A stretch of 64,000 nt of DNA from an uncultured Gemmatimonadota bacterium (GCA_951812955.1 OX638340.1:2912001-2976000), one strand, 5' to 3'; counted from the stretch's first letter, positions 3,869-38,260 are shown. Translations and numbers: made by a program. The notes: generated by a model from the letters alone, not told the origin.

Positions 3869-3940
3869 CGTTAGTGGTCCGGCGCCTGCGGGGCCTGTGC
3901 GGCCCGCCGCCTCTACCCGGTAAGAGGCCAAGCGCAAGCC

Positions 3941-9822: not shown

Positions 9823-10914
9823 ATGTCCGAGCAGGTCCAGATTGCCCCGGCGCCGGAACCTGTCCCGCCGTCTCCCGCGCTGCCCGTACTGCAACCGGAC
9901 TCGGGCTATCTCGGGTACGACCGGGCGCTGTTGCGGCCCATGTCCCTCGGCACTAAGCTCCGAGCCTTGTTCAAGTACCTCTGGGTACGATTGAAGGGCG
10001 GACCGATGGCGGTGAACATGGAGGTGACCTATCTGTGCAACGCCACCTGCGATTTCTGTGATTACTGGAAGACGAAACGTTCAGGCAAGCTGGGCGATTA
10101 CGACTACATGGAGGCGCTCAGGAAGCTGAACCCCCTGACGGTCACGCTGACCGGCGGGGAACCCATGATCAACAAGCGACTGCCCGAGGCGGTCAGACGC
10201 ATCAAGGATGGCCTGGGATTCGTTTATATCGGCATGGTCACCCACGGATCTCTGCTGACCGTAGAAAAGGCCATGGCCCTGTGGGATGCCGGCGTGGACC
10301 ACATTTCGATCTCGTTGAACTATATCGGCCGCGAACATGACGAGGAACGGGGTATCGCGGGTTTGTACGAGCATATCTCCACGCTCGTTCCCCAGCTGAC
10401 GGCCCGAGGGGTCAACGTGATCTTCAACACGGTGATCATGCGTGAGAACCTGGACCACGTCGTACCCATCGCGCACCTGGCGCGTTCTATGGGCGCGAAG
10501 GTTTCCTACAGTTGCTACAGCGACTACAAGAATGGGAACGAAACCCACCTTGTGGATCCCGGTCACGAGGAGCAGTTGGAATCCGTGATCGAGGATCTGA
10601 TCTACCAGAAATCCCGATTGGGAAACATCGTCAATTCCGCCTGGTACTTGCGCCGGATCCCCGATTACTTCCAGGATGCGCTTCCAAGGTCCTGCACGGC
10701 AGCGGGCAAGTGGCTGGTGCAACTGACTCCCGACGGCAACGTAAAACCCTGTGCGGAACTGCCCGTAATGTCCGGGTATGCCGATTTCAAGCGGGTTTCA
10801 ACGAAGATCGACTGCAACCGGTGCTGGTACAGTTGCCGGGGTGAGACCGAATCTTCGTTGAAGCTTGTAAGGGTGCTGGAAGGCCTGGGCAGGGCCTGGC
10901 GCAGTAGCGCTTAA
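9823..10914 (+). CDS. Radical SAM enzyme with C-terminal Cys-rich (SPASM/twitch-like) region
   Basis: The CxxxCxxC cluster motif is CNATCDFCDYW, followed by the GGEP motif (LTGGEPMI). The C-terminal cysteines are C..(17)..PC and CNRCWYSC. Confidence 0.8.
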   Translation: MSEQVQIAPAPEPVPPSPALPVLQPDSGYLGYDRALLRPMSLGTKLRALFKYLWVRLKGGPMAVNMEVTYLCNATCDFCDYWKTKRSGKLGDYDYMEALRKLNPLTVTLTGGEPMINKRLPEAVRRIKDGLGFVYIGMVTHGSLLTVEKAMALWDAGVDHISISLNYIGREHDEERGIAGLYEHISTLVPQLTARGVNVIFNTVIMRENLDHVVPIAHLARSMGAKVSYSCYSDYKNGNETHLVDPGHEEQLESVIEDLIYQKSRLGNIVNSAWYLRRIPDYFQDALPRSCTAAGKWLVQLTPDGNVKPCAELPVMSGYADFKRVSTKIDCNRCWYSCRGETESSLKLVRVLEGLGRAWRSSA

Positions 10915-13900: not shown

Positions 13901-16613
13901 GGTCGATGATCCAGTCGGCCGTCTTGATCACGTCGATGTTATGTTCGATGACAACGACGGTGTTGCCCTTGTCCACGAAGGCGTTCAGCACGGCGAGCAG
14001 ATGGGTGATGTCTTCGAAATGCAGGCCGGTCGTCGGTTCGTCCAGCACGTACATGGTCCGTCCCGTGCTTCGCTTGCACAGTTCACGGCCCAGCTTGATG
14101 CGCTGCGCCTCGCCCCCCGACAGCGTGGGCGCGGGCTGGCCCAGCTTGATATACCCCAGGCCTACGTCGTAGAGCGTCCTCAGCACCCGTGCGATGGACG
14201 GAACGTGCTCGAACAGTTCAAGCGCCTCCTGCACGTCCAGGTCGAGCACGTCGGCAATGGAGCGTCCCTTGTATTTCACCTCCAGGGTTTCCCGGTCGAA
14301 GCGCCTGCCTTCGCAAACGGGACAGGAGACCCACATATCCGCCAGGAAGTCCATCTCCACCCGCGTAGCCCCGTTGCCCTGGCAGGCTTCGCACCGGCCG
14401 CCCCGCACGTTGAAGCTGAACCGTCCCGGCCGGTAACCGCGCAACCTGGCTTCGGGGGTTTCGGCGAAGAGGGAGCGGATCGCGTCGAAGACCTTCGTGT
14501 AGGTTGCCGGATTCGATCTGGGCGTGCGGCCGATGGGGGCCTGGTCGATGTTGATCACCTTGTCCAGGTGCCCGACGCCCTTGAGGCCGTCATGTTCGCC
14601 CGGGTCCGTGCCGGCCTTGTTCAGCAGACGGGCCAGAGCCGCGTACAGGATGTCGTTGATCAGCGAGCTTTTACCGGAACCGGACACGCCCGTTACGCAC
14701 GTAAACCGTCCCACGGGCAGGCGCACGTCCAGGTTCTTGAGGTTGTTCTGACGGGCGCCCTGGATCATCAGCCACTTATCGGCCTCGCCGCGGCGCAAGG
14801 CCGGAATCGGGATCGTCTTCTTCCCGCACAGATACTGCCCGGTCAACGAAGCGGCGCTGGCTGCCACTATGCCGGGGCGGCCTTCGGCCACGATCTCGCC
14901 GCCGTTGACGCCGGCGCCCGGACCAAAATCCACGATGTGGTCGGAAGCCCACATGGTTTCTTCATCGTGCTCGACAATGATGACCGTATTGCCCTGGTCC
15001 CGCAACTGGCCCAGGGTATCCAAAAGCCGCCGGTTGTCCCTGGGATGCAGTCCGATACTCGGTTCGTCGAGCACGTACATCACGCCGACGAGCCCGCGGC
15101 CGATCTGGCTCGCGAGACGTATGCGCTGCGCCTCTCCGCCTGATAGCGTCGGCGCCGTGCGTTCCAGCGAAAGGTATTCGAGGCCCACGTTGAGGAGGAA
15201 GTCGAGCCGGGCGACTATTTCCTTGAGCGCTTCGTCGCCGATCTGGCGTTCGGCATCCGAAAGGGTCAGCTTCCGAAAGAAAGCGCGGATATCCAGTATC
15301 GGCAACCGGCACAGCGCGGCGATGGAGAGGCCGCCCAGGGTGACGGAAAGCGCTTCTGGCTTGAGGCGTTCTCCGCCGCAGCGATCGCATTGGCCTATGG
15401 CCATGTACCGTTCGATCTCGGTCTTGTGCCTGGGGGACTTGAGCGTATGGTACCGTTTTTCTAGGTCGGGAACGACCCCGTTGAACCGGTCCTTGTGCGA
15501 CCACTCGCCGCCCTTCCCGTTGTGGAAGGTGAAGGTGATTCGCTTGTATCCCAGGCCGTACAGCACCACCTTCCGCGCCTCTTCGTCCAACCGTTCCCAT
15601 GGCGTGTCCAGGCTGAAACCCACGTGTTGGGCTATCCCCTCGAAAAAGTGCCGTTTCCACTGGTTGGCGATGGTGCCGAGGGGTTCGATCGCCCCTTCGT
15701 TAATGGACTTCGCCGGATCGGGAATGATGAGCCTGGGTTCGATCCGCATCATGGTGCCCAGGCCGTGACAGTTCGGGCACATGCCCTGGGGGCTGTTGAA
15801 GGAGAACAGTTGCGGCGTGGGCTCCTCGTAACTCAGGTCACACGCGTTGCAGGCGTACCGCGTGCTGAAGAGCAGATCAGAAGTCCGGCCGTCCCCCTCC
15901 ATCTGGACCAACACGGAACCCTGGCTCAGGTGCAACGCGCCTTCCACCGCCTCGACCAGGCGGGTGCGGATGTCCTCCCGCACGACGAGCCTATCCGTCA
16001 CCACTTCGATCGTGTGCCGCATGTTTCGGTCCAGATCCGGATCCTCGGAGAGGTTGACGACGTCGCCGTTCACCCGGGCGCGCAGGTAGCCCTGCCGGCG
16101 CAGGTCCTCGAAGAGGTCCCGGTATTCGCCGCGGCGCCCCTGGATGACCGGCGCCAGTACGAGCAGCCGCGTTCCTTCGGGAAGCGCCAGGATCCGCGCG
16201 ACGATCTGTTCGAGGGTCTGCGCCCCTATCGACCCACCGCATTTCATGCAGTGAGGCGCCCCTACCCGGGCATACAGCACGCGCAGGAAGTCGTAGATCT
16301 CCGTGATCGTCCCGACGGTGGAACGGGGGTTCAGCCCGGCGGTTTTCTGTTCGATGGAGATGGCGGGCGCCAGTCCCGTGATCCGGTCGACGTCGGGTTT
16401 CTGCATCTGGCCGAGGAACTGTCTCGCGTAGGCCGATAGGGATTCGACGTAGCGCCGCTGGCCCTCCGCGTAAAGGGTATCGAAAGCCAGCGAAGACTTG
16501 CCGGATCCGGATACGCCGGTGAAGCAGATCAGTGCGTCTTTCGGCAGATCCAGGCTCACGTTCTTCAGGTTGTGAACGCGGGCCCCTTTGATTTGTATGG
16601 ATGTTGCGGCCAT
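10911..16613 (-). CDS. uvrA: Tandem-fused double UvrA (two complete excinuclease ABC subunit A units in one polypeptide)
   Basis: Four Walker A motifs (GVSGSGK[ST]S), four ABC signatures (LSGGEAQR) and four Walker B motifs (Y[VL]LDEP[ST]xGLH) are present. Zn-module cysteines occur in both halves. Each half is about 940 aa and collinear with canonical UvrA. The halves are joined by the linker RPRALPVAPKPVRQDAAGDGH (about 13728-13790). I chose the start at MAATSIQIKGARVHNL rather than the track start at 16667. Confidence 0.9.
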   Translation of the reverse strand: MAATSIQIKGARVHNLKNVSLDLPKDALICFTGVSGSGKSSLAFDTLYAEGQRRYVESLSAYARQFLGQMQKPDVDRITGLAPAISIEQKTAGLNPRSTVGTITEIYDFLRVLYARVGAPHCMKCGGSIGAQTLEQIVARILALPEGTRLLVLAPVIQGRRGEYRDLFEDLRRQGYLRARVNGDVVNLSEDPDLDRNMRHTIEVVTDRLVVREDIRTRLVEAVEGALHLSQGSVLVQMEGDGRTSDLLFSTRYACNACDLSYEEPTPQLFSFNSPQGMCPNCHGLGTMMRIEPRLIIPDPAKSINEGAIEPLGTIANQWKRHFFEGIAQHVGFSLDTPWERLDEEARKVVLYGLGYKRITFTFHNGKGGEWSHKDRFNGVVPDLEKRYHTLKSPRHKTEIERYMAIGQCDRCGGERLKPEALSVTLGGLSIAALCRLPILDIRAFFRKLTLSDAERQIGDEALKEIVARLDFLLNVGLEYLSLERTAPTLSGGEAQRIRLASQIGRGLVGVMYVLDEPSIGLHPRDNRRLLDTLGQLRDQGNTVIIVEHDEETMWASDHIVDFGPGAGVNGGEIVAEGRPGIVAASAASLTGQYLCGKKTIPIPALRRGEADKWLMIQGARQNNLKNLDVRLPVGRFTCVTGVSGSGKSSLINDILYAALARLLNKAGTDPGEHDGLKGVGHLDKVINIDQAPIGRTPRSNPATYTKVFDAIRSLFAETPEARLRGYRPGRFSFNVRGGRCEACQGNGATRVEMDFLADMWVSCPVCEGRRFDRETLEVKYKGRSIADVLDLDVQEALELFEHVPSIARVLRTLYDVGLGYIKLGQPAPTLSGGEAQRIKLGRELCKRSTGRTMYVLDEPTTGLHFEDITHLLAVLNAFVDKGNTVVVIEHNIDVIKTADWIIDLGPEGGDAGGRVIAEGTPETVAGVDGSSTGRILEKALRPRALPVAPKPVRQDAAGDGHIREITVRGAREHNLRDLTVAVPRDRMTVFTGVSGSGKTSLALDTIYAEGQRRYVESLSAYARQFLQQMQKPKVDHIVGLSPAISIEQKAPGRNPRSTVGTITEIYEYLRALYALVGAPHCPACRVPIGAQTPSQIVDRIMTLPEQTRATLHAPLEPEGAEGYDALLDRARRNGFIRVRIDGVLRRLEEDIQIDRRRRHELCVVVDRIVMQGDVRQRLADSVETALDLSGGLLIAEVQEPDSAGPHDIRFSRYYSCPACGVSYDELSPQSFSFNHRAGMCPDCEGLGTQPGIDLDLLIPDRSKSIRDAAAAIWEEGTVGERSILDLLELVASTQGFNLETPVEALSAEQLQVLLYGSDRWIEDQRVPGLSFQFRGIFPAVELVARYANRFPELARLLQPTPCSACEGGRLRSESLSVLIDGVSIAALCAMSTDRALDFIEGLKLSAPQREVVGEVMKEIRNRMRFLLDVGLEYLTLDRRAPSLSGGEAQRIRLASQIGSGLTGVLYVLDEPTIGLHPRDNLRLIHALENLRDLGNTLIMVEHDRDTLEHADNLVDFGPGAGVFGGRIVGEGTPAALRELETSLTGSYLGNRLRIEVPRDRRKPGRNRLSILGARQNNLKNIDVTLPLGVFICVTGVSGSGKSSLVNDILHPVLASTLHRAQVNPGPHDEIKGLRFVDKVINIDQTPIGHSPRSDPSTYVGLFAPIRSLFSRTVEARMRGYEPRRFSFNVPAGRCEACQGLGVRKIEMHFLADVWMTCEVCDGKRYMKETLEVTYKGKTIADTLEMTVAEALEHFENVPRIRRMLQTLYDVGLDYIKLGQSAITLSGGEAQRVKLAKELSRPGTGKTVYLLDEPTTGLHFDDIRKLLNVLNRLVDKGNTVLVIEHNLDVIKTADWIVDLGPEGGDRGGHVVAAGTPEDIAASLLSHTGKILARELAPVVV

Positions 16614-16844
16614 GGGAATCAAGCCGGATTCAGCGGGTCGTTGGATCAGGGCGAACGGCGGCGGCACAGCAAGCGAAAGATGCTATACGGGTGTTTAGAA
16701 ATCAAGGTATTTTCAAGGTGGACCGTGAATGGCGGAAAAGACGCTTGTTCTATGCCGTTACCGGAGTTAACGTGGTGTCGGCCGGTCCATCAGAATGCGG
16801 CGCGCCGGCCCGCCGCAGCCGATGTCGGAAACGGGACGATCATC

Positions 16845-25179: not shown

Positions 25180-27717
25180 TTACCGCGCGAGGTTTTCGTA
25201 GACCGCTTGCGCTTCACGGAACTGGCCGATCACGTGGTCTATCTCTTCCTGTGAGCGCCAGCCCGGGTGCGCTTCGGCCATTTCGATGAGCCGGTCGATC
25301 CACCGGACGAAATACCCGGCGGATTCCCGGTTGCGGATCGGATCATCTCCCACGTAGATCCGTATGGGTTGTGTCGTGGCCAGCGGAAAACGGTCGTCGA
25401 TGGGGTGGGTCCAGGGGGCACCTTCTGCCTGGAAGGTGTACCATCCGCTCTCACGAACCGTCCACTCTTCCTCGAAGACCGCACGCTTTCCGTCTTCGGC
25501 CAGGGGTATTTCCTTCACAATCTGCCCATTCCTGTAGACCAATACCTTCTCGAGCGGGACGATGCTGTGCATTTCGCCGGCGAGCGAGATCGCACCGCCC
25601 TCTTCAGGTAGATGGATGGTCTCGCCGGGTCCCATGCCGTTGATGGTAAACCCCAGGAGCGGTCCGTTGGTGGCAAAAGTCCGACCGGCCTTCAGTCCCG
25701 CCAGCCAGGCGTCCCAGGACAGGGATTCGTCGCCCAGGTGGACATAGGACCGGACCTGTCCCACGATTGCGGTCCGGTACATGCTGCTGATCGAATCCTC
25801 ACCGCCGGTCAGGACGATGTTGAAGTCGTTGTTGAGCAAATGGTGCCATACGCTGAGGACGGCATGGCCGGCCCCGGAGATCTCGAGTGCTTCCACGGTT
25901 CCCAGTGCCGCGTCGACGGGAAAAGCCTTGGCGCCGCCCAGCGTCGGGTTGTCTCCCCCCAGCGGATCCGCATCGCCGAAAAAGGGATGGACGTATCCGC
26001 GGAAGGCGCCCTGTTCTCCGGCCAGCCGCAACATGTCCGTGTTCGATGGGTAGAGGCTGTGTATTGCGGTTCCCTCGTAGCCGGACGCAAAGGGCGACAG
26101 CAGAAAGTCCGAAAGGTCGATGAAGTAGACGTGACCGTGAAAGGCCGGCCGGTATTCCTCGCCCACGTGCAGGATGCGGTCCGGCGTGGACAGGGCGTCC
26201 GGCCTGCCCGTGAAAAACTGGTAGTCCAGCACGCGGTTGTCCTTGTTTGCCACGAGTTCGTTGACCACGGCCTGATCTTCCGCGTCCGACATGTGCATCA
26301 GGTTCTCCAGGGTGTTATGCAGGTCGCCTGCGTAGTTCATATGCACGTGGGTGCTGCCGCTGTACCAGCCCCTGGAGGGCATGTCCACCATGCGTGAGAG
26401 CGTAAGGGCAACAGCGGTGGTCTTGCCTTCCTCGATCTCTACTGTAGTGCTCACGGGATGATATTCAAAGCCCCGCATGGCTTCCACCGTCAAGGGTCCG
26501 GACGGAACATCGAGGACGAACGAACCGGCACCATGAAAGAAATGCTCGCGGAGACGGCCGACGCGGTGGTAGGCGCCCTCCGGGGCATAGGATTTCCCGT
26601 CTTCGGCTTTTACATAGACACGGGCCGCGGTCGGCTTTCCCGTTTCACCGTCCAGCACGGTGACCGCAGCGCGACCGTGGGAACCGCGCCAGCGCTTTTC
26701 GTTGATCTTGACGTCAGTCAGTCTGCCTCCGACGGTTTCCATGACTCGCATCACGGGCAAACCGGGTTGATTTGAGATAAAGGCGATTTTGGAACCGTCC
26801 GGCGACCAGCGGGGGTAGAAGTCGTCCCATTCGCCGAAGGTGATTTTATATGGGTGCCCCCCGTCTGCCGGCAGGAGGTAGAGTTTCGTGTACTGGCCGC
26901 CGCTGTGGGAGGCATAGACAAAGCGTGAGCCGTCCGGAGACCAGTGCGGACGCGTCCGGTACAGGGTCTGTTCTTCGTGGACGATCCAAGCTTTGTCGAT
27001 ACCGTCCGGTTCGACCGGCATGCGCCATACGGCACCCGATCCAAGTGGGATGCCCCGGTTGCTGACGAACATGAGTTCCTTGCCGTCGGGCGACCAGTGC
27101 GGTTCGATGTGCAGGTCGTACGCGCCGAAATACAGGCGGCGCTTACCGTAGTCATTGTCCCGCGTCAGCTGAATCGGATCTCCGGAGGCGAGGCCGTCTT
27201 TCATGTCCTGAACGAAGATGTTGAAATAGCCGCCGGGTTCCGTGGACACGTAGGCCAGCCTGGAGCCATCGGGCGACCACGCAGGGTCGAGATACAGGTG
27301 GTCTCCGGTAGTCAGCGGCGTGGATGCTCCCGTTTCCACGTCCAGGACCATGAGATCGATCGTCCTGTTGTCGGTTTCAGCCGTGTATACGATCCACCTG
27401 CCGTTGGGCGACCAGGCCGGCGAGGAATCGTAGGTTTCGTTATCGGTAAGTTCGTATGCGATGTTTTCGCCCAGCCCGATACGCCATATGGAACCGTGCA
27501 GGCCAAAGGCCAGTTCGTTTCCTTCGGGCGACCACGCCGGCCGCCGGGGCGTAGTCGTCGAGGGCGGCGGCAGGTAGAAGTTGTGCATGTAGTTGCCGCC
27601 GGTCAGGGCGGCCTGGTACGCCGTGGGAGGGGGTTGCTGGGACACCGAGCGATCTGTCGCCGCCAGGCAGCAGAAGGCCAGCACCAGTCGCAGGGAACCG
27701 GGTAGTCTCGTCATCAT
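25180..27717 (-). CDS. Secreted PD40/TolB-like beta-propeller protein fused to a CehA/McbA-type (PHP-like) metallohydrolase domain
   Basis: A signal peptide is present. WSPDG/WSPNG repeats recur through the N-terminal half. The C-terminal half has GSTHVHMNY and later His/Asp-rich blocks. Confidence 0.7.
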   Translation of the reverse strand: MMTRLPGSLRLVLAFCCLAATDRSVSQQPPPTAYQAALTGGNYMHNFYLPPPSTTTPRRPAWSPEGNELAFGLHGSIWRIGLGENIAYELTDNETYDSSPAWSPNGRWIVYTAETDNRTIDLMVLDVETGASTPLTTGDHLYLDPAWSPDGSRLAYVSTEPGGYFNIFVQDMKDGLASGDPIQLTRDNDYGKRRLYFGAYDLHIEPHWSPDGKELMFVSNRGIPLGSGAVWRMPVEPDGIDKAWIVHEEQTLYRTRPHWSPDGSRFVYASHSGGQYTKLYLLPADGGHPYKITFGEWDDFYPRWSPDGSKIAFISNQPGLPVMRVMETVGGRLTDVKINEKRWRGSHGRAAVTVLDGETGKPTAARVYVKAEDGKSYAPEGAYHRVGRLREHFFHGAGSFVLDVPSGPLTVEAMRGFEYHPVSTTVEIEEGKTTAVALTLSRMVDMPSRGWYSGSTHVHMNYAGDLHNTLENLMHMSDAEDQAVVNELVANKDNRVLDYQFFTGRPDALSTPDRILHVGEEYRPAFHGHVYFIDLSDFLLSPFASGYEGTAIHSLYPSNTDMLRLAGEQGAFRGYVHPFFGDADPLGGDNPTLGGAKAFPVDAALGTVEALEISGAGHAVLSVWHHLLNNDFNIVLTGGEDSISSMYRTAIVGQVRSYVHLGDESLSWDAWLAGLKAGRTFATNGPLLGFTINGMGPGETIHLPEEGGAISLAGEMHSIVPLEKVLVYRNGQIVKEIPLAEDGKRAVFEEEWTVRESGWYTFQAEGAPWTHPIDDRFPLATTQPIRIYVGDDPIRNRESAGYFVRWIDRLIEMAEAHPGWRSQEEIDHVIGQFREAQAVYENLAR

Positions 27718-27854: not shown

Positions 27855-28664
27855 TCAGTTCCGTTCCAACGCTTTTTCGACTTCGGAATCCCAGGTGCCG
27901 TCCACGCGTATCCCATATTCGGCTACGCCCCCAGTGGCCCGTGGTCCGGTGATATAGGGCCGGTAGTCGCGGCCGTCCTCAATGAGGCGGTCCGGCGCGT
28001 AGTCCGCGCGGAGGAAGTGGAAGGCGATGCCGGCCCGGGCCTTATTCGTACTGTTATGACCCGTGCAGTGCGCGGTGCCATAGCAGAAGAACAGCGCGCC
28101 GCCTGCCTTCAGCTCGATGATATCCGCTTGTTCCTCCGGCGGGTAGCAGCGTATGTGGTGGTCGCTGTACTGGTCCCGGCTATGCTCGTAGGCTGTCCGG
28201 TAGCTGTCCGGGATCACCTGCATGGTGCCGTTTTCGACGTTCGCGTCGTGCACGGCAATCCAGACGGCCGTTCCCATAAGGGGATCGCTGATCTTGAAAT
28301 AGGCGTTGTCCTGGTGCCAGTGGGTGCCCATGCCGTCTCCGCCCGGTTTGAGGAAGACCTGGTCCAGTTGGAGAATATAGGGGTCTCCGATCAACTGGGA
28401 GATGGCGGCGATCACGTCGGGCTGGAACGGAAGGGCCCTGAACAGGTCGCTGTGGCTGAACATAGGGCACAACTGCAGGTTGCGCCGCGTCGTGGACTTC
28501 GTCTCTCCATCGCCCTCCGTGGCCACGTTGCGCAAGGCGCCTTCTTCCATGAGACGATCGATTTCGGCCTGAAGCGCCCGGGTATCCTCGTCGGAGAAGA
28601 ACCCGGGTTTAGCCACGTAGCCATGAGATTTGAAATGGTCGACTTCTTCCTTTGTCAATACCAT
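27855..28664 (-). CDS. Phytanoyl-CoA dioxygenase (PhyH) family Fe(II)/2-oxoglutarate oxygenase
   Basis: The blocks are FKSHGYVAKPGFFS, the HxD motif WHQDNAYF, and a distal His in GTAHCTGHN. Confidence 0.8.
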   Translation of the reverse strand: MVLTKEEVDHFKSHGYVAKPGFFSDEDTRALQAEIDRLMEEGALRNVATEGDGETKSTTRRNLQLCPMFSHSDLFRALPFQPDVIAAISQLIGDPYILQLDQVFLKPGGDGMGTHWHQDNAYFKISDPLMGTAVWIAVHDANVENGTMQVIPDSYRTAYEHSRDQYSDHHIRCYPPEEQADIIELKAGGALFFCYGTAHCTGHNSTNKARAGIAFHFLRADYAPDRLIEDGRDYRPYITGPRATGGVAEYGIRVDGTWDSEVEKALERN

Positions 28665-28796: not shown

Positions 28797-31700
28797 TCAG
28801 AAGCTCATGCGAGCCAGCAGGCCGATTCGGTGATCGGACGCGCTGCCATGCCGCTCGAGTCGCATACCGGAGAGTTCCAGGGATGCGCCGCTGGCGCGAG
28901 AACCCGATTGGGAGAGTCTGGCGCCCAGCCGCATCCGCCGCCGGTCGTCTCCGAGGAGATACATTTCGCCGAAAGGCGTCATCAACATGCCAATGGACGG
29001 ATACGCGAGCCCGTAACCGACCTCGGCCTTGAACGCACGGGTGTTGTCCCGGCCGTTCACGGATGTACCGGCAAGCGGTCTGTCACGCCACATCATGCCC
29101 GAGTCTCCCGTACCGGCGCCAATACGCGGCGCGATGGACATGGATAGACCGGTCCCGCCCGCACCGGGATTGAGGTAGGCGGCAACGGAGAACCCGTTTT
29201 CGCTGTATCCATCGGCGGTGTGCACCGCCAGGAACCTGCCCTGCGCGTTTACGCCCACCCGGCCGCCTGACAGGCGCAAGCCTCCCGAGACCTCCAGACC
29301 CTGGCCCGTCTGGCCGGTGCCGCCGTCATAACGTCCGGCAACCTGGGCATAGGGCGTGATCGTGGTTCCGCCGGCAAGCGTCGACGTACGTGACCCTTCC
29401 AGGCCGATCCGGACCCGCTGCACGTCGCTTTCGATGTCGCTCAACGACGGGGATTCGCTGTCGGCGGTCGAAAGACGCAACAGGCCGGCGTCCCCGATTA
29501 CATCGAGACCCGTGCCGCCCGTCCCCGCCACCCGCATGCGCGTGCCCACCATGGCCATGCGCATGGAGAGATCGCTCGCAGCATCCTCCACATCGACTTC
29601 GCCGGTGCCGAGACCCACAATCGACCACACTTCCGTAAGACAGGTGCTGCTTGCCCATCGCAGGTATGGCAGCACACTGGTAAGGCGCGATTCCAGGCTG
29701 CCGCTCGCGACCGTTACGTCGTAATCGGACTGGCCCGCCGCGTGCGAAAGGGCAATACCCGCCATCCAGTTGCGCTCCGTGGCCACATCAAAACCGACGT
29801 AAGCCGTCTTCATGTCGCCATCGTAGCTGGTATTCACGTCGGGTTCGCCCTGGAAGTTCTGCAAATCGCCGGCGCCCCAGACAGACCATCGGAGACCTCC
29901 GTTGGCCGTGCCATCCTCCAGCGCGTACGAGAACGAACTCGTGCTCAACAGGTATCCGCTGTTAACGTAGCGCCGGTTTTCGCCGTCGTTCAACAGCGCC
30001 AGGTGTTTCGCCGAAACCTGGCGTCCGTGGCCGGTAAGTCTGGCCAGGGCCGCCACACTGGACGCGAATCCGTCTATCCTGCGACCTCCCACGGTGAATC
30101 CCTGTCCGCCCGTTCCATCGGAGAAGCGGCCGCCGATCGTTGAGGAGACGCTGGACAGCATGTTCCGGCCCATGGCGCTCAGGATGTTCTCGTAGACCAT
30201 CCGTTCCGCCGCGATGGCCGTAACCGTCACGCCGACGGTAAGGCTGGCCTCGCCGGCCGCGTTCCGGGCGGTGACCGTCACTGTGGCGGAACCCTTGCGA
30301 ACGCCTGTTACGGTCAGCGTGGCCGCCGACATAACGGCCGTTGCCACGCTGTTATCGGATGTGGACGCGGTTAAACTCAGATCTGTACCGCTGAACAGCG
30401 CACCCGCGTTGATTGTCTCGCTTTCACCCGAGTCCAGTGATACCGAAGGCGGACTGCCCACGATTGCCGGGGCATCGTAGGAGTCGGTTATTGTGACCGT
30501 CGCGGAATCCAGGTCCTGGCCATCGTAACTCGCCGTGACGATGATCGTCTCTCCTCCGGACTCGTACACATCGTCGTTGATGACCGTGATGGCAAGCTCG
30601 GAAGAACCTTCCGTGGCCTCGCCTGGAATCGTAATACTCAGGTTGCCACGGACGCTGTAGTCATCGCTGCTGGCCGTACCGGATAGCGCAAGCGGGATTA
30701 CCGTCGTGATCGGTATGGCCCCGCTCGTCTGCGTCGCCGTCACGTTCACGGTCTGCGTACCGCCGTCTTCGGACACAGCCTCGGGGGTAACAGAAAGCGT
30801 AATCTCCGGGACGTAGCCGGTCAGATCGAAATAGAATCCTGACCCGATTACGAGTTCCGTCCCGTCGACCATGACGGTTTCCGTGTAACTCACCTTGGGC
30901 GAGCCCGTATCTTCGTCGCCGTCCACAGCCGGGTTGTCGAAGTAATACTCTACATAACCTCCCCCGGCCTGCGCTGCCGCGATAAGCTCACGAGTGTAAT
31001 AGACCCCATTCAGGTCCTGGTCATCGAAAATGTTCATGTTCTCGATCGATGGGTTGGCACCGTTGAAAACGAGCAGGCCGTCTGTTTGCAGGAAAAAAAT
31101 GTAGATCTCACCCAGCCGCCAGTTTCCGTCCTCGACCCGGAAGGCCTCGACGACGTCACTGTGAAGATCGAATCCCACTTCATCGATGGCGCCTTTGTAG
31201 GCTGCTTTGGCCGCCTGGACAAATGACCTGAGGCTTGCCCGGTCCATCACGTCCGCCGCGGTTACGTCTCCAACAGGAAGAGGAGGTACGAGAACGTCCA
31301 GCACCGTGATCGTCGACGACCCGATATCCTCTCCCTCGTAAGTGGCCTTAACCACGATGGTCTCGCCGTCTTCCTCGGCTACGTCGTCGATCACATCGAA
31401 GGTAAGCGTCGTGGAAGCCGACGTGGCATCCCTTGGAATGATGATTTCGAGCGTTCCGTCCGAGGTATAGTCATCGCTTGTGGCCGTACCCTCGAGTGTC
31501 AGGTCGATGATCGTAGCCACCGGCACCGGGTCGTCGGTGAGCGTGGCCGTCACGGTCACCTCCTGGCCGTCTTCGCCTTCGACGAGGGTTTCACGGTCCA
31601 CCTCCAATGTGATCGCCGGGACGTCGTCCACGGGTCTTCGGTAAAAACCGGCGCCCACGACGAAGGTCTGGCCGGGATAAAAATCCGGATATTCAATAGT

Positions 31701-34700
31701 CTCAGCGTAACTCACCTTGGGCGAACCGAGCTCTTCGTCTCCCATGACCGACGGGTCGTCATAGTGGTACTCGACAAATCCACCGCCCCCAATCGCGACG
31801 TTGATGAGGTCTTCAATGAAGCGCTTGCCGTTCAAGTCTTCCAGGTCGATCCGAATGGCGCCTTCCTGCGTTATGTCCGCCCCGTGGAAGAACACGAACC
31901 CTTGCGTTGTCAGGACGAACAGGTAGATGGCGCCTTCCCTGAACGGTCCTCCTTCTTCCCTCAATGCGGCTTTCAGCCTCCCGACCTCCACGCCGCGCGT
32001 TTCGAAGGCCTCAAAAGTCCAGTCTACGGTGCCTCGCACGAAGGCCTTCAGCGTTTCCTTGTCCACCACGTCCTGCGCACGCACAGCTGGCGGATCCGGA
32101 AGCGTGACTTCTGAAACAGCATCGGGGATATCCATGTTGAAGCCGCCTACCAGGATGAAATCACCCACGCCGAACCCGGATGCGTACGAAGTGGCGTAGG
32201 CCACGCGGTTGGGATCGTCATTGGGATCGTTCGGATCATCCCAGGTGAATTCGACGAAACCCCCTCCTGAATTGGCCGCCGCGAGGATCTTCTGAACGAC
32301 TTTTTCTCCTTTGTCGTCTTCCAGGTCGCTAATGTCAATGCCGTCGCGGGTCGGGTCGTCGCCGTGGAAGAACATCTCGCCTGCAATCGTCAGGACCGAA
32401 AGGTACAGGTCTCCTTGTTTCCAATCGCCTTCGGAACGGAACGCGACACCCAGGGCCGGGAGTTCGTTGGCGTCGGTAATGCGTTCCAGGGAATCGGCCA
32501 CAGTTTCGACAAATCCCTTCAGCGTCTCGCGGTCTACTACTTCGCTGGCCACGATCGTTGTTTTTTCCTTCACCGTGATCGTCGCCGACCCGATATCCTC
32601 TCCCTCGTAAGTGGCCTTAACCACGATGGTCTCATTGGCGCCGTCGATCACATCATCCACCACGTCGAAGGTGAGCGTGGTGGAAGCCGCGGTGGCATTC
32701 CTTGGGATAATGACCTCCAGCGTTCCTTCCACGGTGTAGTCATCGGAAGTGGCCGTACCGTCAAGAGACAGGTTGATGATCGTCGCCACCGGCACCGGGT
32801 CATCGGTCAGCGTGGCAGTTACCGTCACTTCCTGGCCGTCACGGCCTTCGACTACGGATTCCGGATCCACGGCCAGCGTGATCTCCGGTACGTCGTCCAC
32901 AGGTCTTCGGTAGAAGCCTGCGCCTACGACGAAGGTCTGCCCGGGATAATAATGCGGGAATTCAACCGTTTCGGCATAACTCACCTTGGGCGAACCCAGC
33001 TCTTCATCACCCATAACCGAAGGATCGTCATAGAAGTACTCGACAAAACCACCACCTGCTACCGCGGTATTTATGAGATCTTCGATAAAGCGCTTGCCGT
33101 TCAGGTCTTCGAGATCGATCCGGATCGCACCTTCCTGCGTCATGTCCGCCCCGTGAAAGAACACGTACCCATTCGTTGTAAGAATAAACAGGTAGATGGA
33201 GCCTTCTCTAAATGGTCCGTCTTCTTGCCTCAAAACGGCTGTCAGTGTCCCGGCCTCGACACCATGCGTCTCGAAAGCGGTAAAGGACCATTCGATCGCG
33301 CTTTTCACGAAAGCCTTAAGACTCTCCTTGTCCACCACGTCCCGTGCCTGGACAGCGGGCAAATCGGGCAGCATACCCTCTTCCGGATCGGGAATGTCCA
33401 TGTTGAAGCCGCCCACCAGGATGAAATCACCCGACCCAACAAAACCGGATGTATATCGGACCGCGTAAGCCAGCCGGTTCGGATCATCATTGGGATCATT
33501 CGGATCATCCCAGGCAAAATCTACGAACGCTCCCTCGGCGTCCGCTGAGATGATATCCTGAACTACTTTATTGGCGTTGTCGTCTTCCACATCGCTTATA
33601 TCGAACCCGTCCCGGGTGGGATCGTCACCGTGGAAAATCAATACGCCTTCAGGGGTGAGCACCGAAAGGTACAGGTCTTCATGTTTCCAATCGCCTTCTT
33701 CTCGGAGGACACCCCACAATCGAGGGACCTCGTTGATATCGGTAACCCGTTCGAGAGAATCCGCCACCATGTCGACGAATGCCTTCAATGTCACATCATC
33801 CTCCACGTCAGCGGCCGTAATACGTCCAGTAGCGTCAAGAATCGACAGCGTGTCGGCCGCCACTTCCTCCAGGTCGTGGTTGGCAGTGACGATGATGGTT
33901 TCGCCGTCCGCTTCCGCTACTTCGTTGTCCGCCACGTCGAACGTCAGTTCCGTGGTCCCTTCCGTCATCTCGGCGGGTATCGTGACGACCATCTCGCCGG
34001 TTACTGTGTAGTCGGTGTTCTCCACGGCCGTGCCCGACAGGGTCAGCGGCATTCGAACCGATACGGGCAATGCACCATCGGCCCGGGTTTGCGTAGCCGT
34101 CACGGTCACGGTCGCGGTCTCGCCCTCGGTCAACACATCGGGGTCTGCGGCCAGCTCGATCGTACCCACATGATCTTCAAGTTCGTCGAAGTATAAACCG
34201 GAGCCAATGATGTAATCGTTGCCATGAAACACAAACTCTTCGGCGTAGCTCAACTTCGGCGAACCGGTATCTTCGTCTCCCATGACATCCGGATCGTCAT
34301 AGTGATATTCGACAAAACCGCCACCTGCCTGTGCCGCGGCGATGAGATCCTGGATGAAGTACTTCCCGTTTACGTCCTGTTCATCCCATGCAGACATGTT
34401 CTGCAGGCTGGCGTTGGCTCCATGGAAGAACCAGTCTCCCTCGGTGGTCAAAACGAACAGGTAGGTGTGTTCGTGCCTCCAGGGGCTGCCTTCCTGCCTG
34501 AAAATATCCAGGTTCGCTGACAAGATGTCGAAACCGTATTGTTCGAGGGCTGTCTGGTAAGTGGTGATGGATCCCTCTACGAACTTTACGAGGGTACCCC
34601 GGTCCATCACCTCGGAAGCCGTGACCTCCGGGTGGGGAAGCTCATCCGGATTTATCGTGGGTGTGGGAGGGCTCGAACCGGAAAGATTCTGGCGGAATCC

Positions 34701-35240
34701 GCCGACCATGATCACCTTCTGTCCGGTTATACCTGAAGTGTAGCTCACGGCATAGGCAGTTTTAGCGGTATCTTCGTCCCCCTGCTCGTCCGGATCATCC
34801 CAGTAGTAATCGACGAAGTCGCCACCCTCCACGTCCGCGGCCGTTAAGAGCGCTTGCACCACCTTTGTGCCCATCGCATCTTCGACATCAGAGATATTTG
34901 CTGTATTTACCGAGTGGTCATTGGCATGAAGCCATACAATACCGCCCGGCAAAAGGATGATGAGGAAGGTGGTGCCGTCATTCCAGTCTTCCTCGTCGCT
35001 GATTTTGTGGATCCATCCGCTGATATCGTTCGGATTGGTAACCGCTTCCGCATCGGCCTTCGCATACAGCACGAACTGCTTGAGGGTCGCGTCGTCCATT
35101 ACCTGGCCGGCCGTAATCGGTTCGACCTGGGCAGCAGCCGGCCCTGCTCCAATGAGTAGGCTTACCACACCCATCATTACCCCTAAAACCAGAGTTGATA
35201 ACATCAATCTATCAGAAATAGAGGAACTCATAATTGGCAT
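28797..35240 (-). CDS. Giant surface protein: 7 Cache-like + 4 Calx-beta-like modules, a Big_2 domain and an autotransporter beta-barrel
   Basis: There is a Sec signal (...LLIGAGPAAAQ). Modules of about 140 aa repeat with YLFVLTTxGxxFFHGA ... DxNGKxFIxDLIxxAxxGGGFVEYxYDDP ... SPKxSYAE ... VGxGFY, the single-Cache pattern. The Calx-beta-like pattern is VTVTATxT...LxGTAxxxDYT...TLTFDVxDDxxxExxETIVV. The Big_2-like region is SDNSVATAV...TVTGVRKGSATVTVTARN (about 30214-30480). The C-terminal barrel (about 28797-30200) ends ...LLARMSF. Confidence 0.85.
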   Translation of the reverse strand: MPIMSSSISDRLMLSTLVLGVMMGVVSLLIGAGPAAAQVEPITAGQVMDDATLKQFVLYAKADAEAVTNPNDISGWIHKISDEEDWNDGTTFLIILLPGGIVWLHANDHSVNTANISDVEDAMGTKVVQALLTAADVEGGDFVDYYWDDPDEQGDEDTAKTAYAVSYTSGITGQKVIMVGGFRQNLSGSSPPTPTINPDELPHPEVTASEVMDRGTLVKFVEGSITTYQTALEQYGFDILSANLDIFRQEGSPWRHEHTYLFVLTTEGDWFFHGANASLQNMSAWDEQDVNGKYFIQDLIAAAQAGGGFVEYHYDDPDVMGDEDTGSPKLSYAEEFVFHGNDYIIGSGLYFDELEDHVGTIELAADPDVLTEGETATVTVTATQTRADGALPVSVRMPLTLSGTAVENTDYTVTGEMVVTIPAEMTEGTTELTFDVADNEVAEADGETIIVTANHDLEEVAADTLSILDATGRITAADVEDDVTLKAFVDMVADSLERVTDINEVPRLWGVLREEGDWKHEDLYLSVLTPEGVLIFHGDDPTRDGFDISDVEDDNANKVVQDIISADAEGAFVDFAWDDPNDPNDDPNRLAYAVRYTSGFVGSGDFILVGGFNMDIPDPEEGMLPDLPAVQARDVVDKESLKAFVKSAIEWSFTAFETHGVEAGTLTAVLRQEDGPFREGSIYLFILTTNGYVFFHGADMTQEGAIRIDLEDLNGKRFIEDLINTAVAGGGFVEYFYDDPSVMGDEELGSPKVSYAETVEFPHYYPGQTFVVGAGFYRRPVDDVPEITLAVDPESVVEGRDGQEVTVTATLTDDPVPVATIINLSLDGTATSDDYTVEGTLEVIIPRNATAASTTLTFDVVDDVIDGANETIVVKATYEGEDIGSATITVKEKTTIVASEVVDRETLKGFVETVADSLERITDANELPALGVAFRSEGDWKQGDLYLSVLTIAGEMFFHGDDPTRDGIDISDLEDDKGEKVVQKILAAANSGGGFVEFTWDDPNDPNDDPNRVAYATSYASGFGVGDFILVGGFNMDIPDAVSEVTLPDPPAVRAQDVVDKETLKAFVRGTVDWTFEAFETRGVEVGRLKAALREEGGPFREGAIYLFVLTTQGFVFFHGADITQEGAIRIDLEDLNGKRFIEDLINVAIGGGGFVEYHYDDPSVMGDEELGSPKVSYAETIEYPDFYPGQTFVVGAGFYRRPVDDVPAITLEVDRETLVEGEDGQEVTVTATLTDDPVPVATIIDLTLEGTATSDDYTSDGTLEIIIPRDATSASTTLTFDVIDDVAEEDGETIVVKATYEGEDIGSSTITVLDVLVPPLPVGDVTAADVMDRASLRSFVQAAKAAYKGAIDEVGFDLHSDVVEAFRVEDGNWRLGEIYIFFLQTDGLLVFNGANPSIENMNIFDDQDLNGVYYTRELIAAAQAGGGYVEYYFDNPAVDGDEDTGSPKVSYTETVMVDGTELVIGSGFYFDLTGYVPEITLSVTPEAVSEDGGTQTVNVTATQTSGAIPITTVIPLALSGTASSDDYSVRGNLSITIPGEATEGSSELAITVINDDVYESGGETIIVTASYDGQDLDSATVTITDSYDAPAIVGSPPSVSLDSGESETINAGALFSGTDLSLTASTSDNSVATAVMSAATLTVTGVRKGSATVTVTARNAAGEASLTVGVTVTAIAAERMVYENILSAMGRNMLSSVSSTIGGRFSDGTGGQGFTVGGRRIDGFASSVAALARLTGHGRQVSAKHLALLNDGENRRYVNSGYLLSTSSFSYALEDGTANGGLRWSVWGAGDLQNFQGEPDVNTSYDGDMKTAYVGFDVATERNWMAGIALSHAAGQSDYDVTVASGSLESRLTSVLPYLRWASSTCLTEVWSIVGLGTGEVDVEDAASDLSMRMAMVGTRMRVAGTGGTGLDVIGDAGLLRLSTADSESPSLSDIESDVQRVRIGLEGSRTSTLAGGTTITPYAQVAGRYDGGTGQTGQGLEVSGGLRLSGGRVGVNAQGRFLAVHTADGYSENGFSVAAYLNPGAGGTGLSMSIAPRIGAGTGDSGMMWRDRPLAGTSVNGRDNTRAFKAEVGYGLAYPSIGMLMTPFGEMYLLGDDRRRMRLGARLSQSGSRASGASLELSGMRLERHGSASDHRIGLLARMSF
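31302..33794 (-). repeat. Intragenic tandem duplication, period 1269 bp (423 codons)
   Basis: Copy A spans about 31302-32525 and copy B about 32571-33794. They are collinear at an exact 1269-nt offset. For example, CACCGTGATCGTCG[A/C]CGACCCGATATCCTCTCCCTCGTAAGTGGCCTTAACCACGATGGTCTC occurs at 31302 and 32571. Each copy encodes Cache-A, Cache-B and Calx-beta. Confidence 0.85.
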
Positions 35241-35396: not shown

Positions 35397-36798
35397 TCAA
35401 TCAGGTAACGCCTCGTTGCCGAACCGCTCGATGGCATCCAGGGTCTCCAGGACATCGTCCCATGAAGTGGTGTAGTTTACAATACAGAGTCTCAACGAGA
35501 ACTTCTCCCAGAGATTGGTAGAGGATATGAACGCACGGTCTTCCCAGAAGATGCGGACGAGGACCTTCTTGTTGATTGCGTCCAGGGCGGACTCGTCGAG
35601 GTCTGCATGACCGGGATTGACGCGGAAGCATACGATGCCCAGCGACCCTGGTAACAACATCTCCAAGGTATTGCTGTTCCTGATGTAATCCTCAGCTTGG
35701 GCAGCCAGTTCAAGTCCTTTGGAAACGGCTCGACGGAAGGCCGCCATGCCGAAGATCTGCACGGACATCCAAATCTTCAATGCCCGTACGGACCTGCTGA
35801 GTTGCAGACCTCGGTCGGAGAAATTCGGATGATTCGCCCCCCACACCGTGTCCTGCAGGATATCGTGCCGCACCGCGAAGGCGCGCTCCAGCGTACCGAG
35901 GTCCTTTACCATCAGGCACCCGGCTTCGTATGGCTGGTAAAACAACTTATGCGCGTCCAGGCCGATCGAATCGGCGCGCCCGATGCCTCGCAGAAGAGGT
36001 TTCCCCCGTTCGGTAATGACCGCGAAACCGCCGTAGGCGGCGTCGACGTGGAACCAGATGCCTTCCGCTTCGCATAGATCCGCCATCGTTTCAAGCGGGT
36101 CGATCGCGCCCGTGCTGCTCGCTCCGGCGTTGGCGCATACGGCGACCGGTTTATACCCTGCCGATCGATCCTGTTCTATCGCGTGCTTCAGCGCTTCCGA
36201 ATCAAGACGGTAGCGCGCGTCGGTCTGTATCAGCCGTGCGTTCTCGTCGGGAATGCCGATGATCCTGGCTGCCCGGACCAGTGCGCTGTGACTCTGGTCG
36301 CTCATGTACACGGTAGCGTTGTCGGGATTGCCTGCCGCTTCCCGCGCCGCGACCAGGGCTTCCAGACTGGCCGCAGATCCCCCGCTTGTCATGAGCCCTC
36401 CCGCGGTCTCCGGGTATTCAAGCCATCGCCTGAACCAGTCGATAACGACCAGTTCCATCTGGCTGGCCCCGCTAGAGGTCAACCAGGTGCACTGGTTCAC
36501 CTGGTGCGCGGACACCATGAAGTCGGCGAAGCACCCCGGGCCAGGTCGGCGAAGACGGCATGAACGCAAAAAAACGGGGATGGTCGTTACGGGCGCCGAG
36601 GGGCAGGATCTCCTTCGCCGCCCTTTCAAGGACCTCCGTCGCGGAGCTTCCCTGTTCGGGCGGTTCCTCCATGAGCTGGTCTTCGAGCTCCTTCTTGAAT
36701 TCACCGTCCCAGGCATGTTCTTCAGGGAGCTTCTTGATGCGTTCAACGATCAACTCCGCCGTCTTGTTGGCGAGTTCAAGCATGGTCTCGGGCGACAT
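35397..36798 (-). pseudogene. Group II PLP-dependent (aromatic-amino-acid/glutamate-type) decarboxylase, interrupted by a +1 frameshift
   Basis: The N-terminal 90 codons (MSPETMLEL...HPRFFAFMPSSPTWPGVL) are in one frame. The remainder (ADFMVSAHQVN...LDAHKLFYQPYEAG PLP-Lys motif...) is in another. The junction is at about 36528, where one extra base sits in CTT-C-GCC. The joined length would be about 466 aa. Confidence 0.7.
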
Positions 36799-37012: not shown

Positions 37013-38260
37013 TTATTCCCACGAATCAAGGTACTCCTTCTGATCCGATGTCATCTTGTCACACGACAAGCCCATGCTTTCGAGTTTCATACCCGCGATA
37101 TCCCTGTCAATTTCTTCGGGAAGCACGTGAATACCCGGGGTCAGATCCTCGTGGCGTTTTACCAGGAACTCGGCGGCAAGCGCCTGGTTGGCGAAGGAAA
37201 GGTCCATCACGGCCGCCGGATGTCCCTCGCCCGCAACGAGATTGACCAAGCGTCCCTCTCCGAGAACGTGCAGTCTCCGGTTGTTTTCGAGCGTGTACTC
37301 CTCGACAAAAGGCCTTGCGGGACGTCGTGCTACCGCCAACTCGTCAAGTGCTTCCAGGTCGATCTCCACGTCGAAATGACCGGCGTTGGCCAGTACCGCG
37401 CCATCTTTCATGGCGGCCAGGTGGTCGCGGTTCACGACGCTTCGATTACCCGTCACGGTAATGAACAGGTCGCCCACTACGGCTGCTTCTTCCATCGGCA
37501 TGACGCGATATCCTTCCATGGCCGCTTCCAGCGCCGGAACGGGATCCACTTCCGTAATGACAACATGCCCACCCAGGCCCCGCACCCGCGAAGCCACGCC
37601 GCGGCCGCACCAGCCGTACCCGCACACCACAACGGTTTTGCCTGCAATCAGAAGGTTTGTTGCCCGTATGACACCGTCCAGCGCGCTCTGTCCCGTTCCA
37701 AAGCGGTTGTCGAACAGGTGCTTGGTTCTTGAATCGTTGACCGCAATCACCGGAAAGGTCAACGCTCCTTCGCGCGCCATGCTTCGCAATCGGCTTATTC
37801 CCGTCGTGGTCTCTTCCGTTCCTCCAATAACCCGTTCCAAGTGCTGTCGGTGACTAAGGTGTGCGGTCGTTACCAGGTCCGCCCCGTCGTCGAGCAGTAT
37901 ATCCGGTTTCGCCTCCAGCACGGTGTGCAGGTGTCTTCTGAAGGTGTCGGCGTCTTCACCCCTTTTTGCGAAAACTGGAATCTCGTGGTGCACGACCAGA
38001 CTGGCCGCTACATCGTCCTGGGTGCTCAGGGGATTGGAAGCGCATACGATCGGTTCCGCTCCACCCGCCTTTATCGCGGTGACCAGATTCGCCGTCTTGG
38101 TCGATATGTGCAGGCACACGCCTATACGCAGGTCTTCGAAAGGCTTTTCATGACAAAAACGGTCTTTAATGGACTGCAACACCGGCATCTGCCGGGCATC
38201 CCACTCCATTCGCGTTGCGCCGGCTTCAGCAAGATTCGGATCGCGGATATCAGGTTTCAT
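37013..38260 (-). CDS. ahcY: Adenosylhomocysteinase (S-adenosyl-L-homocysteine hydrolase), short ~415-aa type
   Basis: Blocks seen are EWDARQMPVL, the CLHISTKTANL-type block, SNPLSTQDDVAA, the NAD-binding VVCGYGWCGRG, and GHFDVEID. Confidence 0.95.
   Translation of the reverse strand: MKPDIRDPNLAEAGATRMEWDARQMPVLQSIKDRFCHEKPFEDLRIGVCLHISTKTANLVTAIKAGGAEPIVCASNPLSTQDDVAASLVVHHEIPVFAKRGEDADTFRRHLHTVLEAKPDILLDDGADLVTTAHLSHRQHLERVIGGTEETTTGISRLRSMAREGALTFPVIAVNDSRTKHLFDNRFGTGQSALDGVIRATNLLIAGKTVVVCGYGWCGRGVASRVRGLGGHVVITEVDPVPALEAAMEGYRVMPMEEAAVVGDLFITVTGNRSVVNRDHLAAMKDGAVLANAGHFDVEIDLEALDELAVARRPARPFVEEYTLENNRRLHVLGEGRLVNLVAGEGHPAAVMDLSFANQALAAEFLVKRHEDLTPGIHVLPEEIDRDIAGMKLESMGLSCDKMTSDQKEYLDSWE

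Follow-up and report, generated by a model that had tools for sequence, protein, structure and literature searches.

A probably old, selectively maintained in-frame duplication of a Cache-Cache-Calx unit in a giant autotransporter-like protein of a Gemmatimonadota bacterium

The window considered here, a stretch of 64,000 nucleotides from an uncultured Gemmatimonadota bacterium (GCA_951812955.1, OX638340.1:2912001-2976000), carries on its minus strand a giant gene whose product is 100% identical to the database protein P0001, encoded on a contig of 3.81 Mb. In gene order its parts are a signal peptide, three full repeat units (M1 to M3), a short unit (M4) that is found in nearly all close family members, a Big_2 domain and an autotransporter domain (Table 1). 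A Pfam scan of the 2147-residue protein recovers seven stretches of sCache_2 (PF17200, E 4.6e-87) along with Big_2 and Autotransporter (PF03797). The second and third units, M2 and M3, are the subject of this analysis. We propose that they very probably descend from an old in-frame tandem duplication of a 423-codon sCache_2-sCache_2-Calx-fold unit, which has been selectively maintained within a type-V (autotransporter-like) passenger.

Examination of an AlphaFold2 (AF2) model of M3, built on an alignment of 16 units (mean predicted local distance difference test score, pLDDT, 86.5), reveals two α/β domains and one β-sandwich. Searched against the PDB with Foldseek, this model retrieves sCache_2 sensors (4exo, 4k08, 2qhk, 3ub6-3ub9 and 5g4y; template modelling (TM) score on the target 0.59-0.70, E ~1e-5 to 7e-5), the same structures that are retrieved by a sequence profile of the unit, and its third domain matches Calx-beta structures (2dpk, 3e9t, 3ead and 3gin; TM score on the target 0.53-0.62, probability 1.00, E 3e-4 to 3e-3). 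Single Cache domains score 39-50 bits against the Pfam sCache_2 cutoff of 25, and the Pfam Calx-beta model (PF03160) gives no match to the isolated third domain up to E = 1. The Cache-Cache-Calx composition that the original prediction had assigned to the unit is thus recovered, both Caches being recognized by Pfam as well as by fold and the third domain being labeled Calx-beta by its modeled fold only, as the Pfam model is blind to it. This third domain contains an acidic D-D-x-x-E-E-D-G-E stretch, located where Calx-beta domains bind Ca2+. No signaling output domain was detected in the protein with Pfam or NCBIfam; the NCBIfam matches to the carboxylate sensors MctS and CtpM involve only their sensor parts and are far below cutoff, and the arrangement of signal-transduction Caches, which lie between two transmembrane helices and are joined to an output domain, is not seen.

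Comparison of the gene with itself at all offsets from 30 to 3500 nt reveals a single outstanding offset of 1269 nt, at which the best 600-nt segment, starting at 31302, reaches 82.5% identity; the best unrelated offsets of the same scan reach 37-44%. An independent repeat search finds blocks spaced 1269 and 1266 nt apart that are 78-93% identical. The two collinear copies described earlier are therefore found by both methods, and 1269 nt is indeed the main spacing, but it is not exact throughout: the register passes from 1269 to 1266 and back through three single-codon indels, all of them in frame. On account of these indels the ungapped identity at the fixed 1269-nt offset is just 65%. A codon alignment (416-421 codons) gives 77% identity in DNA and 76% in protein, in agreement with the earlier estimate by eye that three quarters or more of the positions match. 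The units are best delimited as in Table 1, with M2 running slightly past the end at 33794 that was first proposed for it. The pair is not reported by Tandem Repeats Finder, whose longest period is 500 nt, and a blastp search of the whole protein against itself yielded the trivial match alone, the units being queried one by one instead.

The similarity of M2 and M3 extends over the whole unit, with protein identities of 68% in Cache A, 81% in Cache B and 79% in the Calx-fold domain. By codon position it amounts to 84%, 87% and 59% at the first, second and third positions, respectively, with 29% expected by chance from composition at the third. M1 is far more distant from both (41-43% identity in protein, 54% in DNA and 37-40% at third codon positions), and M4 matches the second, Cache-Calx half of M3 at 43% identity, so that the claim that modules 1 and 4 are much more diverged is borne out. 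This combination of collinearity across the entire unit with an excess of identity over the M1 pairs, both in DNA as a whole and at third positions, is that of an intragenic tandem duplication. M2 and M3 are a true in-frame duplication of the whole three-domain unit, which is younger than the other units of the gene.

Younger than its neighbors does not mean recent. By the Nei-Gojobori method, the synonymous divergence (dS) of M2 and M3 is ~0.89 and the nonsynonymous divergence (dN) 0.15-0.16; the resulting dN/dS, whose calculation had been suggested with the original prediction, is 0.17-0.18. In 40-codon segments dN/dS is at most 0.31 wherever dS is defined (dS is saturated in one segment). 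Thus both copies evolve under purifying selection. The same pair within the related protein P0002 has a dS of 0.97, and M1 is separated from M2 and M3 by a dS above 1.8. Orthologous sequences are much closer: between the window and P0002, dS is 0.064 for M2, 0.068 for M4 and 0.046 for the neighboring PhyH gene, and between the window and the L002 genome, whose flanks are ~90% identical in DNA, it is 0.19-0.23 for flanking genes and 0.47 for M3. Flanking-gene dS between the window genome and its relatives spans 0.05-0.23 overall, and the divergence of M2 from M3 is 4-5 times the synonymous divergence from L002. Given that it far exceeds the dS of orthologues in close relatives, the copies must have split long before the window, P0002 and L002 genomes did. 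When 49 full units, taken from 23 proteins, are placed in a tree, M3 has orthologues (80-94% identity) in ten other proteins and M2 in P0002 (96%) and P0003 (94%) only; the M2 clade lies outside every unit of the M3 type, and M2 and M3 are about equally similar to outgroup units (65% and 66%).

The near-identical stretch noted in the original prediction has a different history. Between the two blocks listed in Table 1, 62 of 63 positions match, including an exact run of 48 nt, and every other exact run between M2 and M3 is at most 20 nt long. The near-identity noted for the first ~60 nt of each copy is therefore real; the gene being on the minus strand, however, the block encodes the last codons of each unit. 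In the M3 orthologues of loci L001 (protein P0005) and L003 (P0002) there are ~15 differences from the window M3 inside the block and identity on both sides of it, and within the block the window M3 matches M2 at all positions except one. Of 230 sites that separate the M3 orthologues from M2, the window M3 is M3-type at 212; it is M2-type at 13 sites from 31353 to 31307 (11 + 2, split by one novel base only) and at two more, 31381 and 31377. Since the block is missing from the M3 orthologues of the relatives and its flanks are identical in them, it is secondary rather than a remnant of the duplication, and it represents a short M2-to-M3 gene-conversion tract, acquired in the window lineage after its split from the L001 and L003 relatives. 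The 48-nt identical block is now the likeliest site of the next gain or loss of a unit.

These data bear directly on the view, taken in the original prediction, that the duplication is recent, and on the reading of the near-identical stretch as leftover original identity. No other pair of units in the gene is nearly as close as M2 and M3, which would fit this view, as would the very presence of such a block. We nevertheless regard it as highly improbable in the face of the dS of the pair and its low third-position identity, the separate conservation of M2 and M3 in P0002 and P0003, and the lack of the block in the M3 orthologues of two close relatives, whose sequences flanking it are the same as in the window M3. 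The duplication can be called recent only relative to the other modules of the gene, and the near-identical stretch is better explained by lineage-specific conversion than by youth.

Homologues of the protein differ in their number of units. Their lengths form a ladder of ~1222-1300, 1720, 2144, 2565 and 3005 residues, in which each step corresponds to one unit (~423 residues), and a hidden Markov model (HMM) of the unit finds 1-5 full units in database proteins and 0-4 in GTDB species representatives, a range of 0-5 in the comparison with related genomes that had been recommended as a check. The clearest case is P0005, the gene of locus L001 in a near-identical strain, which is syntenic with the window, with flanks 95-98% identical, a dS of 0.000 in M1 and 0.006 in PhyH, and 0.00-0.05 in the sequence neighboring the variation. 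P0005 tracks M1 and the start of M2 of the window gene (99.6% identical) up to gene nucleotide 1419 and M3 (98.3%) from nucleotide 1422, and so has an in-frame hybrid of M2 and M3, which leaves it exactly one unit short of the window gene. The crossover patch is 37 nt long; within it 5 sites distinguish M2 from M3 in the window, and no exact match between them exceeds 8 nt, which makes a k-mer collapse unlikely; furthermore, the hybrid product is recorded on two contigs. Because P0002 and P0003 retain both units, P0005 represents the derived state, generated by deletion through unequal crossing-over. The expectation that the locus is prone to recombination-driven variation in copy number is thus supported by this hybrid and by the length ladder, and the unit count of the gene cannot be assumed from one assembly.

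An opposite change is seen in P0004, the gene of L002, in which a 1287-nt type-B unit is repeated 4.0 times at 100% DNA identity (L002 6121-11265, gene nucleotides 121-5265), on a 3.92-Mb contig; this array reflects either amplification in the very recent past or an error of long-read assembly. Pairs of the same type within one protein are 100% identical in P0004 and P0022, 91% in P0006, 75% in the window gene and 63% in P0008, and thus form a continuum of ages. The order and type of the units vary likewise, being A-C-C in the window and D-B-C, B-C-B', B-B-C-D or A-B in relatives. Between the window and P0002 (the gene of L003), M1 and M3, with dS of 0.26 and 0.21, are several-fold more diverged than the M2, M4 and PhyH sequences given above, a mosaic that suggests that whole units have been exchanged between alleles. 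Unit order, pair ages and mosaicism together fit a birth-and-death evolution of units combined with exchange between alleles, in which the array changes by loss through M2/M3 crossover, by conversion between M2 and M3 and, in a relative, by fresh multiplication of a unit of a different type. Two other homologues depart from the usual layout: P0022, with two identical units, ends abruptly before any Big_2 or autotransporter region, and P0029 has an out-of-frame-looking stretch in its linker region. The two have the appearance of alleles with a frameshift or truncation, or of errors in assembly.

As the window probably belongs to a metagenome-assembled chromosome and repeats are classic sites of assembly error, the possibility has to be weighed that one unit was falsely expanded or that two haplotypes were joined in tandem. 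The sequence comparisons make such an artefact unlikely in the extreme. With 23% of positions different and three codon indels between them, the copies are not a pair of strain variants, for which dS at this locus is 0.00-0.26; the reading frame is intact over 2147 codons; and three contigs of separate assemblies (P0001, P0002 and P0003) have the layout M1-M2-M3-M4. An exact search of metagenome contigs of the Joint Genome Institute (JGI) with the 38-nt M2/M3 junction gave 0 matches and is uninformative. Of the proneness to assembly collapse or expansion that was originally foreseen, a small risk is left, for copies that are 77% identical, have a single exact run as long as 48 nt and were assembled in the same layout three times independently.

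Another explanation is that M2 was imported, as a type-C unit of a divergent allele or lineage inserted beside M3 by homologous recombination between arrays. The tree of units gives it some support, with M2 confined to P0001, P0002 and P0003 and branching outside all M3-type units, including those of more distant genomes; the free variation of unit order and type among relatives and the dS mosaic between the window and P0002, an indication of allelic exchange, also point in its direction. It lacks a donor, however: newly found matches to M2 are all at most 49% identical (a weak argument, the search not having listed the known family again), and frequent unit loss, as in P0005, explains the patchy distribution of M2 equally well. 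We therefore judge import unlikely, if by no means negligible, and retain an old duplication within the gene, fully aware of three points that weigh against it. At around 0.9, dS approaches saturation, and the Nei-Gojobori method gives rough values; duplication in situ requires that M2 was lost in many lineages; and the variants P0005 and P0004 come from metagenome assemblies.

Table 1. Features of the gene and its repeat units, in window coordinates
Feature	Coordinates	Strand	Residues	Basis or remark
Whole gene	28797..35240	-	1-2147	2147 codons and a stop codon; list of open reading frames and translation
Signal peptide	35130..35240	-	1-37	ends ...GAGPAAA, followed by QVEP; visual inspection of the translated sequence
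Unit M1 (type A), Cache-Cache-Calx	33831..35126	-	39-470	unit HMM match
Unit M2 (type C), upstream duplicate	32565..33830	-	471-892	alignment, unit HMM
M2 Cache A	~33411-33815	-		
M2 Cache B	~32907-33344	-		
M2 Calx-fold domain	~32568-32882	-		
Unit M3 (type C), downstream duplicate	31296..32564	-	893-1315	AF2 model, Foldseek, unit HMM
M3 Cache A	32145-32549	-		
M3 Cache B	31641-32078	-		
M3 Calx-fold domain	31299-31613	-		
Terminal short unit M4 (one Cache and one Calx-fold domain)	30483..31295	-	1316-1586	unit HMM positions 160-424
Big_2 Ig-like domain	30234..30455	-	1596-1669	Pfam PF02368, 31.2 bits, cutoff 22.8
C-terminal region, predicted long helix then β-rich autotransporter domain	28800..30230	-	1671-2147	Pfam PF03797; ends ...ARMSF
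Conversion tract in M3, copied from M2	31302..31364	-		M2-type diagnostic sites run 31307-31353
Donor block in M2, encodes ETIVVKATYEGEDIGSATITV	32571..32633	-		block comparison
P0005 crossover, M2 side	33753..33756	-		base-by-base comparison; M3-side partner ~32487-32490

Several features of the protein suggest that it is exported. Read by eye, its N-terminus has the look of a Sec signal peptide, with a hydrophobic core and a cleavage-like site between AAA and Q, and its last residue is aromatic. PF03797 scores 33.7 bits on the whole protein and 35.9 bits on the C-terminal region alone (cutoff 26), and one homologue bears the NCBI name 'autotransporter domain-containing protein'; it is on this partial Pfam match and this name that the putative autotransporter assignment is based. 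In the AF2 model of the C-terminal 477 residues (10 sequences), the order of secondary structure, a long helix and then many strands, is all that agrees with the 12-stranded barrel and pore-spanning linker helix of type Va. Certain observations tell against the assignment: the best PF03797 stretch covers only positions 1-76 of the 255 in the model; the AF2 model, with a pLDDT of 37.5, is unreliable and was left out of the fold search; and no PDB sequence was matched by a profile of the C-terminal region. Surface exposure, ligand binding and Ca2+ binding are likewise all predictions only.

Keeping this in mind, we tentatively propose a function, to which we would give somewhat less than an even chance. 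Export would be through the Sec pathway, and the C-terminal barrel would hold the passenger on the cell surface. In this passenger, Cache domains that bind small ligands would form a string, spaced and stiffened by putative Ca2+-binding Calx-fold domains. It might serve as a multivalent adhesin or as a stalk that captures ligands, with its reach and its binding repertoire set by how many units it has and of which types. In favor of this proposal are the purifying selection on both copies and the greater divergence of Cache A, relative to Cache B and the Calx-fold domain, which would allow M2 and M3 to differ in specificity.

Members of the family are named Gemmatimonadetes or Gemmatimonadota, with some records given as 'Candidatus Latescibacterota' or plain 'bacterium'. 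The species-level relatives are almost all metagenome-assembled genomes (MAGs) whose isolate tags match the sponge hosts of Robbins et al. 2021 (PMC8163846), including Aplysina, Ircinia, Coscinoderma and Rhopaloeides, and an enrichment of domains of the attachment type among sponge symbionts is reported in the same study. If Cache strings bind host-derived metabolites or matrix components, the protein would be a candidate attachment or nutrient-capture factor in the sponge symbiosis.

Beyond this family, a search with M2 only recovered many exported di-Cache proteins (P0125-P0231) that are 37-47% identical to the unit and have neither a Calx part nor an output domain. They include stand-alone di-Cache proteins of 330-370 residues with a Sec (P0145) or Tat (P0214) signal, and proteins of 528-710 residues in which the di-Cache region is combined with FlgD_ig and Por_Secre_tail/CHU_C type IX sorting domains (P0156, P0125 and P0132). 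More distant relatives of ~850 residues (28-36% identity by tblastn, L033-L080) are encoded in sponge MAGs of other phyla, among them Alphaproteobacteria/Paracoccaceae, Nitrospirales, Nitrospinota, Arenicellales, Thermodesulfobacteriota and Binatia, and several of them start with a 'CPLP.GV.PP' motif after the signal peptide. Eight such open reading frames (ORFs) were scanned with Pfam (L034, L037, L049, L052, L064, L079, L045 and L039): Autotransporter was found in four of them and a weak, below-cutoff Cache in three. Both domains occur together only in L052; L039 (1561 residues) has a strong Cache only and L037 has neither. These ~850-residue relatives may have spread laterally within sponge microbiomes.

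More speculatively, the window protein may belong to an undescribed class of Cache proteins that are exported, do not signal and are common among the sponge-associated members of several bacterial phyla, a proposal that we consider conceivable and still rather doubtful. Here a di-Cache cassette would be exported by fusion to an autotransporter, by type IX C-terminal sorting domains, or as a stand-alone Sec or Tat substrate. In the autotransporter version the stalk would be an array of ligand pockets, and recombination, by varying its units, would turn it into a variable multivalent binder of host or matrix molecules. Cassettes related to it are found on other export devices of sponge symbionts.

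The neighboring genes at 25180-27717, 27855-28664, 35397-36746 and 37013-38260 are on the minus strand, in an arrangement that is conserved in L001, L002 and L003. This neighborhood comprises a PhyH-family dioxygenase and a Tricorn/PD40-like gene on one side and a PLP-dependent decarboxylase, an AdoHcy hydrolase and MatE on the other, with no evident functional tie to the surface protein. Scanning 28.5-35.7 kb for promoters and terminators gave none above shuffled expectation, and an Rfam scan of the entire window found no match. Two antisense plus-strand ORFs inside the duplicated region, 32364-33548 (394 aa) and 33630-34196 (188 aa), have no separate signal and were dropped as presumed shadow ORFs of a GC-rich gene. 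Elsewhere in the window, a 1918-aa ORF at 10911-16667 on the minus strand has two UvrA_inter and two UvrA_DNA-bind matches together with ABC ATPase motifs, and looks like a fused, double-length UvrA.

Set against known systems, the Caches of the window protein have the same fold as the sCache_2 sensors of chemoreceptors and histidine kinases (4exo/2qhk, 4k08, 3ub6 and 5g4y; MctS and CtpM) and a recognizable signature, Y.F...H...D.NG...GGGF..Y.W/Y..P...K..Y. Unlike these sensors, the window protein lacks the pair of transmembrane helices and the output domain, and carries seven copies along a secreted protein. According to Upadhyay et al. 2016 (PMC4822843), Cache domains were until then known exclusively from proteins that have output signaling domains; their later survey, which took in every protein with a Cache, records a single exception, the SMP_2 family. 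A search of the full-text literature, with and without the sponge context, found no paper describing Cache domains in an autotransporter passenger. Domains described as sensors wired to signaling outputs are here strung on an exported, putatively outer-membrane-anchored protein without such an output; this passenger of sensor-type Caches appears undescribed and, along with the family of exported Caches, is of greater novelty than the duplication.

The third domain of the unit shares its fold with Calx-beta, known from CBD1 of NCX1 and CALX and also from giant bacterial surface proteins, but differs from it in escaping PF03160 and in that its Ca2+ binding is a prediction. With type Va autotransporters the protein shares an N-terminal signal peptide (as read by eye), a long passenger, an above-cutoff C-terminal PF03797 match and a terminal aromatic residue. 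In contrast to those, its passenger is made of Cache, Calx-fold and Big_2 domains and not of a β-helix, and its β-domain match is partial, in a C-terminal region of ~477 residues.

The closest parallel is offered by periscope proteins and fibrillar adhesins, bacterial surface proteins of variable length with tandem repeats of folded domains, whose repeats are typically 82-100% identical (Whelan et al. 2021, PMC8201768). Like these, the window protein appears to present a tandem array of folded domains at the cell surface, with a repeat number that differs between close strains and changes in frame by recombination, and the four 100% identical units of P0004 resemble typical periscope stalks. 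It differs in that the repeat is a 423-residue module of three domains rather than a single domain, that it combines units of several diverged types in an order that varies, that the repeats have ligand-binding sensor folds in place of inert stalk domains, and that no separate N-terminal adhesive head domain is seen. The window pair, at 77% identity in DNA, also falls below the typical range, which is reached in P0004 (100%) and, at the protein level, in P0022 (100%) and P0006 (91%). As we read it, the locus brings together an old selected pair, a dated conversion tract, a one-unit deletion mapped to within a few bases and, in a relative, an apparently fresh four-fold amplification. The duplication itself is ordinary for surface proteins, and is one more example, unusually well resolved, of length change by recombination of whole modules.

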